Made by a program: the position numbers and the translations under genes
NCBI GenBank assembly: GCA_964537315.1
Contig: CAZIAP010000004.1
Coordinates: 14,509-78,508, forward strand
Length of the DNA: 64,000 nt
DNA from: an uncultured Gammaproteobacteria bacterium
Lineage (GTDB): Bacteria > Patescibacteriota > Microgenomatia > Levybacterales > GWA1-39-11
Direction: 5' to 3'
Shown here: positions 3,265 through 64,000 of the stretch, in pieces
Layout of the letters: the number at the start of each line of letters is the position of its first letter
Position numbering within the stretch: position 1 is the first letter of the stretch
The notes under the pieces: model-generated
Databases searched by the model: none
What the model was told of the DNA's origin: nothing
Seen by the model: the letters and a program-made list of their open reading frames with translations, nothing else

Positions 3265-4449
3265 CTATTTTCCAATTTTAGTCTGCGTTTTTATACTAAA
3301 TTTGTTTATTTTATCAATTAACTCCAGATTTGATTTGTGATCAAAGGTTAAGTTTTTTTCAATTTTTTTCTTTGCATATCGTTCAAATCCCCATAGCCGT
3401 ATTAATCCTCCCTCATCAGGATCGAGGATATTCTCAGCTATGCGTGCGAGTAAGTATTTCGCCTCGTGAAATGAGTTTCCTGGTGATAGATATGCGTTGC
3501 CCCATTGCTCAAACTGTGCCTCGGTTACTTCGATTTGATAACCCATCTTTCTGGAATTTTTGATATTTGAACTAACTGTATTTCGCTGAAAAAAATTTGA
3601 GAAAGTAATGTAATCAACCGGACCAAGCTTTGGAAGTTTTATAAAATTTGGAAGGTTATAGTAGTAATTAATTCCGCAAATAAATGATTTGGCTGGAGCA
3701 ACTTTCTTTCTATCAAGCTCTTTAATTATTTTAACGATTTTAGAAGTATCTCTGGTTTCCGATGAGCTTAGTAAAATTTTTTTATCCGGAAACTTGGTAC
3801 TAATGACTTCAATAACTTTTTCTACATACTCCTCACTTAATCTCAGTTTTAGTTTTCCAAAAGGATTAAATGCCTCATTTTCTGGCTGAATAATTTGTAA
3901 GTAAGATAATTGTTTTTTTGGATAAGTGGATTTGATATCTTCCAATAAATAACTTAAATACTCAATTGATCTTTTTGAGATTTCCGAGTTTACACTTACT
4001 CTGCTTCCTGGTGTTATCAAAAATTTATTTATAAGTGGTAAAGGAATATACTCTTCAGGCCAGCCAAATGTTTTAATCGGTCCTACGTTTAGACATACAC
4101 TTACTTTGTTCGACAAACAATAATCAAGATATGGCTTGTAGTAAGAAAAATCTATCTCTCCATTTTTATTTACAGATTTATTCCACTTTATCCCTAACCT
4201 GATCTCTCTCATTCCGAACTCTTTTACTAATACTTCAAGTATTCTTAGTTTTTCTTCTACACTTGGAGAATACTTATTCTCTTTCTGATACAGTTGATCC
4301 ACAAGATCAGGGGAGTATGAACATCCTATTTCGATTTTTTTAAATTTATCTTTGTATTTTTCCCAGTATTTGTCTAATGACAAATCAGCATTTTGGTGTG
4401 TTCGGTACTGCCGGTAAAAATGAGTAAACCAATCATTAAAGTTTGCCAT
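3265..4449 (-). CDS. hypothetical protein, possible clan GH-A TIM-barrel glycoside hydrolase
   Basis: 394 aa; QPENEAF (NEP-like acid/base motif) and IEVTEAQ (TE nucleophile-like) spaced as in GH-A enzymes; no signal peptide. Confidence 0.4.
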   Translation of the reverse strand: MANFNDWFTHFYRQYRTHQNADLSLDKYWEKYKDKFKKIEIGCSYSPDLVDQLYQKENKYSPSVEEKLRILEVLVKEFGMREIRLGIKWNKSVNKNGEIDFSYYKPYLDYCLSNKVSVCLNVGPIKTFGWPEEYIPLPLINKFLITPGSRVSVNSEISKRSIEYLSYLLEDIKSTYPKKQLSYLQIIQPENEAFNPFGKLKLRLSEEYVEKVIEVISTKFPDKKILLSSSETRDTSKIVKIIKELDRKKVAPAKSFICGINYYYNLPNFIKLPKLGPVDYITFSNFFQRNTVSSNIKNSRKMGYQIEVTEAQFEQWGNAYLSPGNSFHEAKYLLARIAENILDPDEGGLIRLWGFERYAKKKIEKNLTFDHKSNLELIDKINKFSIKTQTKIGK

Positions 4450-4486
4450 TGTACAATTGTATCATTGGGAATAATTAGAAATTAGT

Positions 4487-4500
4487 CCGCCAGCTGGCGG
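4487..4500 (-). terminator. perfect palindrome CCGCCAGCTGGCGG between hydrolase-like and HIT genes, possible terminator/operator
   Basis: 14-bp perfect palindrome flanked by AGAAATTAG-type motifs; followed on minus strand by T-rich actaatttctaatt. Confidence 0.3.
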
Positions 4501-4511
4501 ATTAGGAATTA

Positions 4512-4893: not shown

Positions 4894-5907
4894 ATGACGG
4901 AGCATGAAAGCCAATCATCACTCTCTCCAAATGATCACCCAGATATTGAAATTCGAATGGGTACGGATCGTAATGAGACTACAGGAATAGAAAATTATGA
5001 GCTAACTACATCGGGTTTTCTTTTTAACCCTAAAGAAGCATTTTCAATAGCTCATGAACTCAATAAAGATCTTAAAGAAAATGAACGGATAACGCTCGAG
5101 ATATACCCGACTCTTGACCGTGGTATTCTTGGCACAGTTCGCGGAATAGGAGAGAGATTTGGTTATCAACTTCCAATTCCACCAACAGTTGATGAAGATG
5201 CAGTAAGGTCGTGGCAGAAAGAATTCCCACTAGCACAGGTCTCTCGAGTACACCTCCCTTTTAGTTATAACAAGCATGAGCTTCTCACACGGCCTATTGA
5301 TGAAAAAGGTCTTGGAAGAAAAGTACGCTCAATGCCGTGGATTGTGTATTTTGGTGCAGCAACTAATAAAAAAGGTATTGAGCTTGCCCAAGCACTGGAC
5401 GCCGATATTACTGCTCACACTAATGTTGTTGAGGGATTTGCCCAAGACGGAAAACTGGATGAACTAACAGTTCCTGGATTACATGTCCTAGCTGAAAATG
5501 AAATGGAATATGATTCTCCCATTTTGAAAGATAAAAGGGCTATATCTGACCCCATATATATCGCTGAAAATATAGTAGAAAAATATAATCTTGATGGATT
5601 ACTTCTCGGACTTGATCATGCACTTGAACAAGGAGTAGACATACATAAAGTATTAGATACTCCTTCAATACACAAGCATACCCGTGCAATACATCTTGCT
5701 GATGTAAATCATGGAGCAGTCATCACAGGTAATGAACAAATTGAAAAGCTAATCCAACACATAGGTAGAACAACATTTGATCATCCCGTACGCGCAGCAT
5801 TGGACTTAAACCCTCTCGAGTTAGGTAAACTCACAGAACGGGAAAGATTTCAATTAATAAAAAGCACTATCGATTGGATAAAAGATAATCAATATACTTC
5901 TGCGTAA
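4894..5907 (+). CDS. hypothetical protein (338 aa); start moved to ATG at 4894 to avoid overlap with HIT gene
   Basis: Long ORF; 5' part of ORF-track call (4744) overlaps convergent HIT gene; in-frame ATG MTEHESQ at 4894; no recognisable motifs. Confidence 0.5.
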   Translation: MTEHESQSSLSPNDHPDIEIRMGTDRNETTGIENYELTTSGFLFNPKEAFSIAHELNKDLKENERITLEIYPTLDRGILGTVRGIGERFGYQLPIPPTVDEDAVRSWQKEFPLAQVSRVHLPFSYNKHELLTRPIDEKGLGRKVRSMPWIVYFGAATNKKGIELAQALDADITAHTNVVEGFAQDGKLDELTVPGLHVLAENEMEYDSPILKDKRAISDPIYIAENIVEKYNLDGLLLGLDHALEQGVDIHKVLDTPSIHKHTRAIHLADVNHGAVITGNEQIEKLIQHIGRTTFDHPVRAALDLNPLELGKLTERERFQLIKSTIDWIKDNQYTSA

Positions 5908-14390: not shown

Positions 14391-14993
14391 TTAGTGCTCT
14401 CCTATGAAGTGTTTGTGTTCTTTGTGTTTTTCGTTATATCTCCAGTATGGGAGAATACCTATTAAATTCACCAAACTGGAGATAATAAATAAAATTTTAA
14501 ACCCGAATTCTTCTGCGATAACCCCTCCTAAGGCTGTAGCTATTCCCATACCAGTAAATGTGACAGCGTGATAAATACCCCAAGTTCTAGAGGCCTCTGC
14601 TCTACCTAGGTTGAGTGAGAACATAGATAGTTTTGCTGGTGAAGATATTGCAAAACTCATTCCTGCAACGATGAAGAACAAGTAAAAAGTAATTAAAGTG
14701 GGAAAAAAAGCAATCATAAGGTAGCTACATGAAAGCAGGGTCATTCCAACCACATCTGTAATCATTCTTTTTCTGTCAGAGGGGAATTTTACGTAGTTAC
14801 TAACTACTAGTTCACTTATAACACGTACGAGTAAATAAAGCGTAAATCCAAATGCTGCTGTACGCACATTACCACCAGGGAGTGTAGATACAACAAAAAC
14901 AGCAATAATATGAGAAACAAAGTTCCAAGCTGACCAGAAAAACGCTTCAGAAAAAATAAAAGCCACTACGATGGGGTTCATTTTTTTCCACAT
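14391..14993 (-). CDS. membrane protein, MFS-like half-transporter (6 predicted TM)
   Basis: 200 aa, six hydrophobic segments, GxxxG-rich helices resembling one MFS half. Confidence 0.45.
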   Translation of the reverse strand: MWKKMNPIVVAFIFSEAFFWSAWNFVSHIIAVFVVSTLPGGNVRTAAFGFTLYLLVRVISELVVSNYVKFPSDRKRMITDVVGMTLLSCSYLMIAFFPTLITFYLFFIVAGMSFAISSPAKLSMFSLNLGRAEASRTWGIYHAVTFTGMGIATALGGVIAEEFGFKILFIISSLVNLIGILPYWRYNEKHKEHKHFIGEH

Positions 14994-60643: not shown

Positions 60644-61765
60644 CTATTCCTCATCCGCTTCAAACTGTTCTACATAAAACTCTATACTTTTCTCAACAGC
60701 TTGTTCCCATGAACCTAGGTTAAAGTTGTGATTCTCACCCGGGTATTTATAGTACTCAATATCCTTGTCCATCTCCTCCATTGAGCTTGCAAATTGATCA
60801 CTCCACCGAACCGGAACAGCCTCATCAGCCACTGCCTGGTGAAGCTGAATTGGCGCGTTTATCCATTCATAATACTTGCTCGGTGAATAGTTAAATACAT
60901 CATACTCTGTCTCAAAATCTGCAACTACTTTACGTAGTGCTTTTCCTTCATCTTCAAACTCATCAGTAAAGTACAATATGCTATATGGGAACGGCTTGGT
61001 TACCGGATTCCATAAAACAGTAGGTATCCGTTTGCCTGTTATTGCAAGAACCGAGAGCGAGATGTGTCCACCGTTACTATGCCCCCATATTCCAACCTTG
61101 GCAGTATCTGCCTCTATTCCTGCAATTGGACTGAAGCTTTCGATTTGACGTGTAGTACCGGTTGGAGTAATTGTTGCCTGACTCTCTCCAAATTTTTTAA
61201 GCGCATCAACAAGACTCGGAACTGATTCAAGCATTGTTAGAGCTGTTGGATAAGTCTGTAATCTATCCTCAATTGACCCCTCCGCACCTGAGTCTGATTC
61301 TCCAAAACCTAAAAAGTCTGGTGCAAGAGTAATATATCCATTACGTGCGAATTCTTCCGCAGTCCTGCGTGTGCCTTCTCCTGTAGTAAAGTTTTCTCGC
61401 GATACAAACCCCCTAAACATCACTATAATAGGATAATTTCCAGGCTCTTTTGGAATATTAATTAGACCACTTACCTTTTTATCACTCTCTGCGTTGAGTA
61501 AGTCACCACTTACTGTATATGTAAATATAAACGAGGCAAAATCAGGGTCATCTTTTATTTGTTTACCTATTTCAATTGAACTAGGTCGAATATCTGTGGA
61601 ACTCAAGCTTTCAAAAGAATACTTTTCAAGAGGTTTTTCTGCGATCTCATCAACTTTCTGAGATATTGGTGTGGCTATATCACTACTGGCTAGAAACTTA
61701 AAGATTGAAAATCCAACAATTCCGACAAGCAAGACGATAATAAGAATAATTACTAACTTTCGCAC
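60644..61765 (-). CDS. membrane-anchored alpha/beta hydrolase (third member of cluster)
   Basis: N-terminal TM; GHSNGG nucleophile elbow, C-terminal HNF. Confidence 0.75.
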   Translation of the reverse strand: MRKLVIILIIVLLVGIVGFSIFKFLASSDIATPISQKVDEIAEKPLEKYSFESLSSTDIRPSSIEIGKQIKDDPDFASFIFTYTVSGDLLNAESDKKVSGLINIPKEPGNYPIIVMFRGFVSRENFTTGEGTRRTAEEFARNGYITLAPDFLGFGESDSGAEGSIEDRLQTYPTALTMLESVPSLVDALKKFGESQATITPTGTTRQIESFSPIAGIEADTAKVGIWGHSNGGHISLSVLAITGKRIPTVLWNPVTKPFPYSILYFTDEFEDEGKALRKVVADFETEYDVFNYSPSKYYEWINAPIQLHQAVADEAVPVRWSDQFASSMEEMDKDIEYYKYPGENHNFNLGSWEQAVEKSIEFYVEQFEADEE

Positions 61766-61833
61766 TCACCTATTATATCGGAATATAGTTAAAATAAAAG
61801 CGAAGGAGGGAATTAGTTGATGGAAACCATGAG

Positions 61834-62118
61834 CTACTTGCTATCTTCTTTTTCTACCGAGATAGTACACTCGGTAATTAGTGCTGCCATTGCGCCTACT
61901 GCAGCAAGAACCGGTGCGAGTGCCGTACCAAGAACACCAAACGTTAGGGGAAATCGCATCAACTCTTTACCGTTTTTATCAATTATGGTAATTTTACGCA
62001 CATTTCCTTCGTGCAAAAGTTCTTTTACCTTTGAAAGAAGCTCTTCCCCGCTTACTTTAAAGGTTTGCTCTGTAGTTTTTTTAGACTTCTTTGTCGTCGC
62101 CATAAATTTATTATACAC
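61834..62118 (-). CDS. DUF4342-family protein
   Basis: 94 aa, pattern FKVSGEELL.KVKEL...N.R.I.I.D..G.. with C-terminal hydrophobic helix as in DUF4342. Confidence 0.65.
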   Translation of the reverse strand: MYNKFMATTKKSKKTTEQTFKVSGEELLSKVKELLHEGNVRKITIIDKNGKELMRFPLTFGVLGTALAPVLAAVGAMAALITECTISVEKEDSK

Positions 62119-62278
62119 TACACAAAGACTTTTAGCTCCTCCTCCTTATTTCGCCACTTTGCGTAAATAATAATTACTTGTATTCTTAAGATACTAGTAC
62201 TTTTGTAGCCAAAAGTACTATCTTTGCTTACATAGACAAAATATGTCTATAATAATAACATCAGGATTATTTACCCTA

Positions 62279-62307
62279 TTGACAAAAGTCTTATAGTATA
62301 TTATAAT
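62279..62307 (+). promoter_or_regulatory. perfect consensus sigma70 promoter TTGACA-17nt-TATAAT
   Basis: Read directly: TTGACAaaagtcttatagtatatTATAAT; no ORF downstream. Confidence 0.6.
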
Positions 62308-62313
62308 CCTCAA

Positions 62314-63111
62314 ACATTGTGCTTGGTAGGCCTTTTATTTGCAAAAGCCGTCTACAAAAGCACTTGTAAGTACATTAACAAAGGAATACAGGAAAAACTC
62401 TTTTACACATCCGTGTATTTGAGTTGAAAACCTTTACCCCGCTAAGCGGGGTACTCTTTGCTTGATATACTTACAAGCCACATACAGAGGCGCAAATCAC
62501 CAATTGTGCTTCTCTATCTGGCTTGTAGGTTACGGAAATGTTTTCCGTAAGCTCAAGCTTTGGGAAGGAAGGATAGTGGCAAGAAGCCCGCCGTGTACCG
62601 GACTTAGTTCGGTAAGTATAATGAATAATTATATTGGCGCGGCTCAGCCGCTAGAAGAAAGGAAAGAAGATGCGCAAACTGCGTACCTAGTCCAGTAGGA
62701 TTAGAAAAGCATTCGTCGTGCGGTACTGACCGCCATAAGTTGAACGAGAATGCTTTAGTACAGTCTGACTGATGTGCAGACTCCAATGCTCGATATAGCA
62801 AAGGATCATGTCTCCACAGTCAACTGGACACCCTACTGGACACTATGTATGTATATTAGGGAGCCAAATGCTCCCCGGGTACCGGCACCCGTTTACGCCG
62901 ACTAGGGTCAGACCCACAATGATGGGTCTGACCCCATCTATACCGCACTTATCATCCCTTCCTCTCTTTCGTCCGAGGATCGATCCCAATATATACCGAA
63001 AATCTTTTTCGGGATCGGTCCTCCTCGGAGGGGTACTACTTGCATACTAGCAGTACACCCCATCTCCTCCCTCCCTATTCTGGGGGCCTGCACCGCAGGC
63101 CCCCTTTATAT
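62314..63111 (+). ncRNA. candidate large (~800 nt) structured non-coding RNA of unknown class
   Basis: Bracketed by consensus promoter and strong intrinsic terminator; no credible ORF; elevated local GC; >10 perfect GC-rich hairpins. Confidence 0.45.
63082..63111 (+). terminator. rho-independent terminator
   Basis: GGGGGCCTGC-ACC-GCAGGCCCCC (10-bp perfect GC stem) followed by TTTATAT. Confidence 0.7.
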
Positions 63112-64000
63112 AGATAGGTTTTCTATATGAGCACGTCGATCATCGACACCAACTAACAATTGCGTTATGCTTGAGTGTCACACATGAACGTCGAACGTTC
63201 ACGAAATATCCTGTATTCCTTTGATTTCAAATATTTTCTCCTAAATTTATATTTCACTAATAATAATCAACAACTTTTTAACCTTTTAACTCGTTAATAC
63301 TTCACACTTAATTCCCAATACCCAATTCTGCTTTGTAGAGAATTTGCTTTCACATCTAAAGTAGCTTATAATATATAAATTCGCACGCACTGTACACTAT
63401 GCGTATGGACTGCGTGTTTCGTAGAGTTCTTTGACATAAGGAATAGAATTGAAAATTAATTAGGGAATTTTGTAGACAGTCAGGAAGAGATGGAATGCCA
63501 ACATTCCTTTTCCTCTTGACTGTTTGCATTAACGGAGGTGTAAACTCAGACTGGCTTACGAGCCAATTACTATAACCGGCCCTCACCCAGCCGGTTTATT
63601 TCACCCTCCTCTCCCCTTATACCATACATTCAAAGCACCCCCTGCTTTTGTATGGTAGTACAGTTGGCGCAAGAAGCCAGAGAATTACCCCACCCAACAC
63701 ATATATGTTGGAATTCTCGGCTTCTTGGCCTTCTGTATTTTGAATTATCTTTCTTTCTCATAGGTATCATTCCCTGGTTCTGCAAGCATTTTGCGCTTGC
63801 AATAACTATATCTACCGATTGAGTGTAGAAAAATCCCTATTCCTTATGTCATCTTTTTAAGCACTTAAGCTCCTACTATTTTTTTCATTGTTTTATTGTT
63901 TAACCGCCTTAGTGCAACCTCGACTTTCTGTACTGTGAACCATTAACCAAGAACTATTAATATTTATTTTAGTCTTATAGTACTTGACTCGCATCTTGAA

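Follow-up and report, generated by a model that had tools for sequence, protein, structure and literature searches.

The interval 63112–64000 closes a stretch of 64,000 nucleotides (nt), referred to here as the window, from contig CAZIAP010000004.1 of an uncultured bacterium (positions 14,509 to 78,508). It is full of hairpins, and an earlier note made from the letters of the window described it as a structured region free of open reading frames (ORFs), holding either a second RNA or an extended 3' part of a preceding one. Which of these is it? Both descriptions turn out to fit – 63112 to ca. 63235 is the tail of one RNA (RNA-1), and 63379–63858 is a second RNA (RNA-2). The interval consists of four parts: the 3' end of RNA-1, a spacer, the complete RNA-2 gene, and the promoter belonging to the protein gene that follows. 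RNA-1 and RNA-2 are tandem paralogs of one family. The reading that the locus holds two paralogous structured non-coding RNA (ncRNA) genes, with 63112–63235 belonging to the first, is given a probability of about three in four.

The region 61500–64000 was read and its ORFs were listed, and the whole window was scanned against Rfam (Rfam 15) and with the transfer RNA (tRNA) finder ARAGORN. The locus can be followed past the window edge on a public contig, L001, that is identical but longer (71766 minus the L001 coordinate gives the window coordinate) and carries a neighboring hydrolase of 373 amino acids (aa). On this contig the non-coding gap measures 2.1 kb (62104–64219); the earlier note was right that there is a gap without genes here, but its estimate of ca. 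1.7 kb was too small. The gap is bordered on the left by a divergently transcribed DUF4342 gene that starts at 62103, and on the right by a small cysteine-rich ORF of 112 aa with its ATG at window-equivalent 64220. The extended contig has no protein gene running across the region, and no ORF within 63112–64000 is conserved; the largest is 76 aa (minus strand, 63356–63586). Two checks that had been proposed, a search of Rfam and a look for the nearest tRNA, came back empty – no family reached the gathering score anywhere in the window, and ARAGORN found no tRNA or transfer-messenger RNA (tmRNA) anywhere in it. A permissive Rfam search of 61900–64000 (E ≤ 10) returned only weak, below-gathering models of eukaryotic microRNAs and unrelated small RNAs, i.e. 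noise.

Orthologous contigs were fetched via homologs of the DUF4342 protein and of a 249-aa nucleotidyltransferase on the far side of the gap. In L012 the DUF4342 protein is 87% identical (75.6% for the gene at the DNA level), and the contig is colinear with the window across the entire gap, in blocks of 61–77% identity. L027, with a nucleotidyltransferase 85% identical, has 65% identity over window 63117–64051 as well as a 5' block at 62228–62570. L007 covers the gap up to ca. 63300, and the contigs carrying P0004 and P0006 end before RNA-2. The neighboring hydrolase, used as a query against genome contigs, gave two weak unrelated matches only. A promoter and terminator scan of the gap made three calls, at 62279–62307, at the hairpin 63082–63104 and at 63984–64012, all on the plus strand. 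Two perfect long-range inverted repeats of 15 nt, missed by the earlier note, came out of a repeat search of the gap: 62379–62393 with 63209–63223, and 63432–63446 with 63837–63851. Both repeat sequences are unique within the window (with up to 3 mismatches allowed, nothing beyond chance expectation was found).

RNA-2 has what is generally asked of a structured ncRNA – compensatory changes and no conserved ORF. The segment 63378–63860 folds at −179 kcal/mol, compared to −106±6 in dinucleotide shuffles (z = −12.1), and the 63432/63837 helix closes the molecule. The RNAalifold consensus of the window, L012 and L027 has 103 pairs; 95.1% of the cells are paired, and 16 pairs have changed on both sides. 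Column shuffles gave 7.3±2.0 such pairs, with 0 of 500 reaching 16, and sliding the partners by 1–3 columns gave 2–5 (the shuffles ignore the relatedness of the sequences, the slid control does not).

RNA-2 is predicted to be ca. 480 nt long, with its 5' end (ca. 63379) placed from the promoter and its 3' end (63858) from the U-run after the closing helix; it and all the features of both RNAs are given on the plus strand. Its layout is a 5' hairpin, a perfect 15-bp helix, here called the clamp, that encloses 390 nt of hairpins, and a U-run, and colinear homologs are found in L012, L027 and L009. The 5' hairpin, H1 (63383–63417), has 13 pairs, 4 of which have changed on both sides, and GCGTATG is conserved in and beside its loop. 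The 5' arm of the clamp, TGACATAAGGAATAG (63432–63446), is preceded by the family motif AGTTCTT and is the perfect complement of 63837–63851. The clamp is invariant in L012 and L027, and in its L009 counterpart, TGACAAAGGAATAGG/CCTATTCCTTTGTCA, one base pair has been deleted and one gained. H2 (63471–63528), a long hairpin of 26 pairs, is kept in L012 and L027, where 2 pairs show compensatory change and G-U pairs are conserved; the shorter L009 copy lacks it.

The interior that follows (63534–63657) is variable. In the window, GGAGG at 63534–63538 pairs with CCTCC at 63605–63609, enclosing hairpins at 63553–63564 and 63574–63596 (AACCGGC-CCTCACCCA-GCCGGTT), and a further hairpin downstream of this unit (63620–63657) contains AAAGCA-CCCCC-TGCTTT at 63632–63648. 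The sequence of this part is not conserved; a hairpin occupies the same place in L012 (TATCGGAG..CTCCGATA) and L027 (TCCTGCAC..TGTGTGGGA). The hairpins at 63574–63596 and 63632–63648 had been described as terminator-like, a description that does not hold up – they lie in the lineage-variable interior of RNA-2, lack sequence conservation and are unlisted by the scan. H3 (63659–63737) is another long hairpin, invariant at its base and with a tip that varies in length. Its stem has 9 bp, a bulged A and 6 bp, plus an outer TACAG/CTGTA; the 18 basal pairs are 100% paired in three genomes, and the tip has 40, 28 or 15 nt. H4 (63775–63808) is the clearest case of covariation in RNA-2. Outside is TGGTT/AACTA, inside is TGCAAGC/GCTTGCA (63781–63801), and the inner stem reads TTTGTGC/GCACAAA in L012, TGCATGC/GCATGCA in L027 and CTCAGGC/GCGTGAG in L009. 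Four pairs have changed on both sides and 100% of the cells are paired, with the loop, ATTTTGC in the window, conserved as ATTT(T/C)GC throughout the four genomes. The 3' arm of the clamp (63837–63851) is followed by TCTTTTT, up to 63858; the corresponding U-rich tail is TTTTTTT in L012 and TCTTTTTTTT in L027.

RNA-1 is predicted to extend from its promoter, P1 (62279–62307, 12/12 consensus in the promoter scan), to ca. 63235. The 5' arm of its clamp, CAAAGGAATACAGGA (62379–62393), is identical across L007, L012 and L027 and forms a perfect 15-nt inverted repeat with 63209–63223. This helix closes the minimum free energy (MFE) structure of 62314–63240, which has −376.5 kcal/mol and z = −16.6. 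The GC-rich hairpin at 63082–63104 is terminator-like in the window and had been taken for the end of RNA-1. In L012, L007 and L027 a hairpin is kept here, in unrelated sequence and without the U-run, and conservation picks up again immediately 3' of it. Since the clamp of RNA-1 spans this hairpin, it is probably an internal structural element and not the end of the RNA.

The 3' tail of RNA-1 (63112–63235) is aligned and conserved in four genomes, those of the window, L007, L012 and L027. It contains a block identical in all four, GGTTTTCTATATG (63117–63129), followed by the hairpin GTCGAT-C-ATCGAC (63135–63147), a conserved CTAACAATTGCGTTA, the hairpin TGAACGT-CGA-ACGTTCA (63185–63201), the 3' arm of the clamp (63209–63223, within a conserved CACGAAAT..CCTGTATTCCTTTGATTT) and GATTTCAAA. 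The second of these hairpins has a G-C to C-G swap in L007. Folded alone, the tail has almost no structure, because its main pairing partner is 800 nt upstream. All six of the hairpins listed earlier for 63112–64000, in the tail and in RNA-2, are present to within 1 nt, and the related genomes keep them or have hairpins at the same positions.

Between the two RNAs is an AT-rich spacer (63236–63343, GC ca. 0.32) that cannot be aligned between relatives. It has no alignable similarity to L012 or L027, and its short tandem repeats vary by genome. Neutral sequence has thus diverged beyond recognition, and the conserved blocks are under constraint. The spacer ends at P2, the candidate promoter of RNA-2 (63344–63372, plus strand), which has a −35 box TTGCTT at 63344–63349, a 17-nt spacer and a −10 box TATAAT at 63367–63372. 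Its counterpart in L012 and L027 is TTGCAT-17-TATAAT at a conserved position; L009, which is more distant, has TTGACT-17-TATAAT.

The evidence for a family comes from inverted-repeat scans of the orthologous gaps and a table assembled from them, with 11 copies. The common plan is a sigma-70-type promoter, TTGAC(A/T)-17-TATAAT; a 5' hairpin of 35–45 nt with UUGCR in its loop; a AGTTCTTTGACA..AGGA motif; a helix of 14–15 bp; and a U-rich tail immediately following the 3' arm. A single-stranded motif, AGUUCUUUGACA, is conserved across the family. The 11 copies carry 6 different clamp sequences, each perfectly complementary over 14–15 bp: CAAAGGAATACAGGA in RNA-1 of the window, L007, L012 and L027; TGACATAAGGAATAG in RNA-2 of the window, L012 and L027; GACAAAGGATACAGG in the first copy of L009 and TGACAAAGGAATAGG in its second; CATAGGACACAGAC in L014 and L016; and CATAGGATACGAAT in the L034 group. 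In 10 of the 11 copies the −10 box and the first clamp arm are 59–71 nt apart, and the 5' modules of all copies align. A hidden Markov model of the 5' module finds exactly two sites in the window, 62317–62397 and 63379–63451 (E = 7.5e-10 for the latter), and only the expected syntenic sites over ca. 345 kb of fetched loci. RNAalifold gave no consensus for a 12-sequence alignment of the 5' module, because MAFFT does not align hairpins structurally.

The interior enclosed by the clamp is 211–978 nt long, built of hairpins and fast-evolving, and interiors are not alignable between clades. The clamp helix is present in every MFE structure of the copies folded, and the z scores of other copies are −6.3 (second copy of L009), −11.4 (L014) and −9.1 (L034). 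There is one copy in the L014/L016 and L034 clades and there are two in the clade of the window and in L009, where the second lies beyond two small genes from the first and has its own strong TTGACT-17-TATAAT promoter. L020 and L030, which are more distant or differ in synteny, have no copy.

UUGCR also recurs as a U-rich motif in hairpin loops of both RNAs, at 63160–63164 and 63791–63795 in the window, and in the 5' hairpin loops of every homolog, and may be a binding or tertiary-contact motif. Within the interior of the L034 RNA is a tRNA-like gene (5656–5730, minus strand; Rfam tRNA 45.2 bits, E = 1.8e-8), which ARAGORN lists as 'tRNA-???', giving the anticodon loop 8 nt. Its acceptor stem has 7 bp, its ACCA end is encoded, and it forms a cloverleaf when the entire RNA is folded to its MFE structure. 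In L016 a T-arm-like GGAGTTCGACTCTCC occupies the corresponding place; RNA-1 and RNA-2 of the window have no tRNA-like part. A sequence resembling a type III hammerhead, with intact CUGAUGAG and CGAAAC cores, lies in L009 at 4438–4509 (minus strand), between two small genes in the same variable region; it shares the strand of the RNAs and reaches 33.4 bits (E = 0.0016), short of the gathering score of 48.5.

Rfam gave no family at the gathering score for six related loci, and only below-gathering noise for L001 6900–8700 at E ≤ 5. A DNA-pattern scan of metagenome contigs with the RNA-2 arm found nothing, and one with the P1 promoter pattern found three unrelated loci with the promoter alone in common. 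A blastn search of phage records and pattern scans of viral contigs likewise found nothing. Full-text literature searches turned up no description of such an RNA in Patescibacteria, which is absence of evidence only. The family is apparently undescribed, and is known here only from a few closely related ultra-small bacteria of the Patescibacteria type. The organism of the window was assigned to this type by the names that its protein homologs carry.

Downstream of RNA-2 the RNA locus does not run past the window edge, contrary to one possibility raised earlier; the last 17 nt of the window begin P3, the promoter that serves the cysteine-rich gene (63984–64012, plus strand). P3 has TTGACT at 63984–63989, a 17-nt spacer and TATACT at 64007–64012, the −10 box being beyond the window. 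It scored 10/12 in the scan, has an extended −10 TG, and is conserved in L012, L027, L014 and L016. The 11-mer GTCTTATAGTA occurs at 62288–62298, within the P1 spacer, and at 63972–63982, directly upstream of the P3 −35 box. Both sites are conserved in L012 and L027, and L014 and L016 have GTTATAGTAC at the second; it may be an operator shared by the promoters of RNA-1 and the cysteine-rich gene. The leader of this gene (window-equivalent 64013–64219; L001 7547–7753, minus strand) is a long conserved hairpin, ca. 95% identical between the genome of the window and L012, well above coding DNA. It has 9 covarying pairs over four genomes and no Rfam match, and in the genome of the window an extra GC-rich hairpin has been inserted. 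A 16-nt similarity between H1 of RNA-2 and this leader is not kept in L027 and was treated as chance.

The cysteine-rich protein itself (112 aa; window-equivalent 64220–64558; L001 7208–7546, minus strand) has the pattern C..CxC..CC..CxxC. It belongs to no Pfam family, and a homolog search of the database returned only the protein itself; homologs exist in L012 and L014, where they are not called as genes. The gene is usually next to the RNAs, and the adjacent protein in L034, of 116 aa, is without the cysteine motif. Between the RNAs and the gene of the 249-aa nucleotidyltransferase, each relative has small genes of its own – of 74 and 112 aa in L027 (5650–7000), 127 and 153 aa in L009 (3955–5037), and 147 aa in L014 (6066–6509) – and this segment is a local hot spot of gene turnover.

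Several points weigh against two separately transcribed structured RNAs. The comparison of RNA-2 covered only three close sequences and one divergent one, and the clamp helices are invariant inside the closest clade, so that their covariation is seen only between clades and between paralogs. The interior is unconserved between clades, a behavior that RNAs with a defined tertiary fold do not usually show. Both ends of each RNA are placed from sequence features, and the 63082–63104 hairpin does resemble a terminator in this genome, so partial termination or a shorter isoform of RNA-1 is possible. The opposite strand of RNA-2 folds nearly as well as the plus strand (z = −10.8 vs −12.1), and the strand is therefore left undecided by thermodynamics. 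The plus strand is very probably the one transcribed, judging from the promoters and the G-U pairs: P1, P2 and P3 all face the plus direction, and four G-U pairs invariant in all three RNA-2 sequences would be C-A mismatches on the minus strand. The weakest link for independent transcription of RNA-2 is the poor −35 box of P2, which matches the consensus in TTG only and for this reason was not listed by the promoter scan. Given this weak and unlisted box, read-through from RNA-1 could be the source of some or all of the RNA-2 made.

Taken further, read-through leads to an alternative in which RNA-1 and RNA-2 are domains of one transcript of ca. 1.55 kb from the promoter at 62279–62307, possibly processed at the clamp helices in the way that RNase III cuts the stems flanking 16S and 23S ribosomal RNA (rRNA). 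The two units are in tandem on the same strand, ca. 145 nt apart, no canonical terminator follows the RNA-1 clamp, and P1 matches the consensus at 12/12 against the weak −35 box of P2. However, TATAAT at 17-nt spacing from TTG is conserved in the window, L012 and L027 and the spacer 63236–63343 is not conserved; the single-copy clades show that a unit is self-contained, and the second copy of L009, two genes away with a strong promoter of its own, must be transcribed independently there. We regard a single transcript as unlikely. It is considerably less probable that the stretch acts on the cysteine-rich gene as a long, structured 5' leader or cis-regulator; this is the least credible of the alternatives weighed. 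That gene is on the same strand, directly downstream, and often co-located with the RNAs, but it has its own conserved promoter (63984–64012) and its own conserved 200-nt leader hairpin, in L009 it sits upstream of RNA-2, and in L034 the RNA is present with an adjacent protein that lacks the cysteine motif.

Two further explanations were weighed. If the perfect inverted repeats were the terminal repeats of non-autonomous transposons like miniature inverted-repeat transposable elements (MITEs), the hairpins would be incidental. Conserved ends around a variable interior are the pattern expected of transposable elements, the arms of the two copies in the window are related (they share AAGGAATA), and the second copy of L009 is placed differently relative to the neighboring genes. 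Yet all copies are at one syntenic site, with none elsewhere in the window or in the ca. 345 kb of related loci and no match in phage records or viral contigs; the gene lists of the loci have no transposase gene nearby, and the bases flanking the arms show no clear target-site duplication. The conserved unit includes a promoter and 5' hairpin outside the repeats, 59–71 nt ahead of the arm. The arms are perfectly complementary despite interiors that cannot be aligned, a pairing that an immobile, dead element would not maintain, and internal covariation with conserved G-U pairs indicates selection on RNA. A mobile element is very improbable. Small proteins are slightly more so, encoded for example by the plus-strand ORF 63652–63822 (56 aa, hydrophobic) or the minus-strand ORF 63356–63586. 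The frame over RLLGLLYF..PWF..HFA is open in the window, L012 and L027, and downstream of H3 indels happen to come in multiples of 3. Against this, the plus-strand ORF has no conserved start codon or ribosome-binding site, the frame upstream of the H3 tip differs in L027 (tip of 15 nt vs 40 and 28), and in L009 the conserved CCTGG/CCTGA block contains a TGA in frame. The changes in H4 keep the pairing but are radical in amino acids (C to F; K to V/M; L to H; A to K), and the RLLGLLY stretch is 100% identical in nucleotides, third positions included, compared to 75.6% for the adjacent DUF4342 gene against L012. The minus-strand ORF, which had already been called implausible, is not conserved as a protein in L012, and the 76 aa resemble their counterpart there only under the conserved hairpin H2.

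A number of known RNAs were also considered for the locus. A CsrA-type sponge RNA, RNase P RNA and 6S RNA were dropped on sequence features, and a retron msr/msd was dropped as there is no reverse transcriptase gene nearby. No housekeeping RNA (RNase P RNA, tmRNA, 6S, signal recognition particle RNA, rRNA or tRNA) was matched by Rfam or ARAGORN in the window or its extension, the sole hit to the tRNA model being the one within the L034 homolog. ROOL, GOLLD, OLE, raiA and HEARO were absent even at E ≤ 10 (61900–64000) and E ≤ 5 (L001 6900–8700). A bacterial Y RNA (YrlA) was rejected as well – the Pfam lists of the loci have no TROVE domain, the RNAs are 300–1000 nt long, and there is no Rfam match.

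Compared to known systems, RNA-1 and RNA-2 are like ROOL, GOLLD, OLE and raiA in being stand-alone intergenic RNAs of several hundred nucleotides, with many hairpins, with covariation, and untranslated. Those RNAs have conserved cores and a wide phylogenetic range, whereas the family here is confined to a narrow clade, is conserved mainly at its ends, varies ca. threefold in size, has tandem paralogs, and has no Rfam match. tRNA genes are often adjacent to ROOL and GOLLD (PMC5737381, PMC12286853), and the copy of the L034 clade contains a tRNA-like gene. With the YrlA-type Y RNAs, bound by Rsr (Ro60), the family shares 5' and 3' regions that pair into a long closing stem. Y RNAs are ca. 100–200 nt long and adjoin the rsr gene, which encodes a TROVE-domain protein. 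The interior of a Y RNA can reportedly carry a tRNA-like module, as Chen et al. are said to have described in 2014; the L034 copy is comparable in this respect, but most copies, including both of those in the window, have no such module.

The processing stems of 16S and 23S rRNA are similar in that long-range helices surround a large structured RNA, in tandem units, with a strong promoter and sometimes a tRNA near. Unlike in rRNA operons, the enclosed RNAs are not rRNA (no Rfam match), the clamp stems of 14–15 bp are shorter than typical RNase III substrates, and a conserved hairpin precedes the first arm, which is ca. 55 nt into the transcript. The likeness to MITEs is in the perfect inverted repeats, related between two adjacent copies, around non-coding DNA that is rich in hairpins and a few hundred bases long; the differences are the single syntenic site, the RNA-type covariation with G-U pairs, and the lack of a recognizable target-site duplication.

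What the analysis shows for the preferred reading, two paralogous RNA genes, is their anatomy and selection on structure; a mechanism can be proposed as well. Each unit would be transcribed from its own promoter, and the nascent 3' arm would pair with the arm near the 5' end. The clamp helix and the U-run after it might then end the transcript, shield its 3' end, or both, and the product would be a stable, closed RNA of many hairpins, serving as a free-standing scaffold of RNA only or bound by protein. The only sequences conserved across the family, AGUUCUUUGACA and the clamp, are at the ends; together with the recurring UUGCR loops, this suggests a factor that recognizes the ends and loops, with the interior as a variable scaffold. 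The small cysteine-rich protein would be a candidate binding partner, but the association is not universal, L034 being the exception. A function as a scaffold or ribonucleoprotein is doubtful at present. It is a more probable but still tentative proposal, put at somewhat under even chances, that these are the founding members of an undescribed class: abundant 'end-clamped' RNAs of 0.3–1 kb, from one lineage of ultra-small Patescibacteria, with a hypervariable, modular interior framed by a conserved promoter, a 5' hairpin and a perfect 14–15-bp clamp.

The genomes of Patescibacteria are among the smallest and most tightly packed with genes in bacteria. Even so, this lineage keeps ca. 1.5 kb of tandem, structured, apparently strongly promoted ncRNA at a fixed site. 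Large bacterial ncRNAs are rare, and work on the few that have been studied (OLE, ROOL, GOLLD and raiA) has led to unexpected biology, including cages made only of RNA. The evolution of the family is unusual – the architecture and ends are invariant, and the interior turns over quickly. A helix spanning hundreds of nucleotides may be a design for termination or end protection. If there is such a class, its interior can be duplicated, can expand threefold, and can take in a tRNA-like gene. The RNA could then resemble ROOL and GOLLD as a scaffold, or an RNA-only assembly, specific to this lineage, or it could be a carrier with a clamp helix that also serves to terminate transcription over a long range. 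Should expression be confirmed, the copies would be a tractable natural set of RNAs of variable size, from 311 nt (L009) to ca. 920 nt (the window), for structural work.

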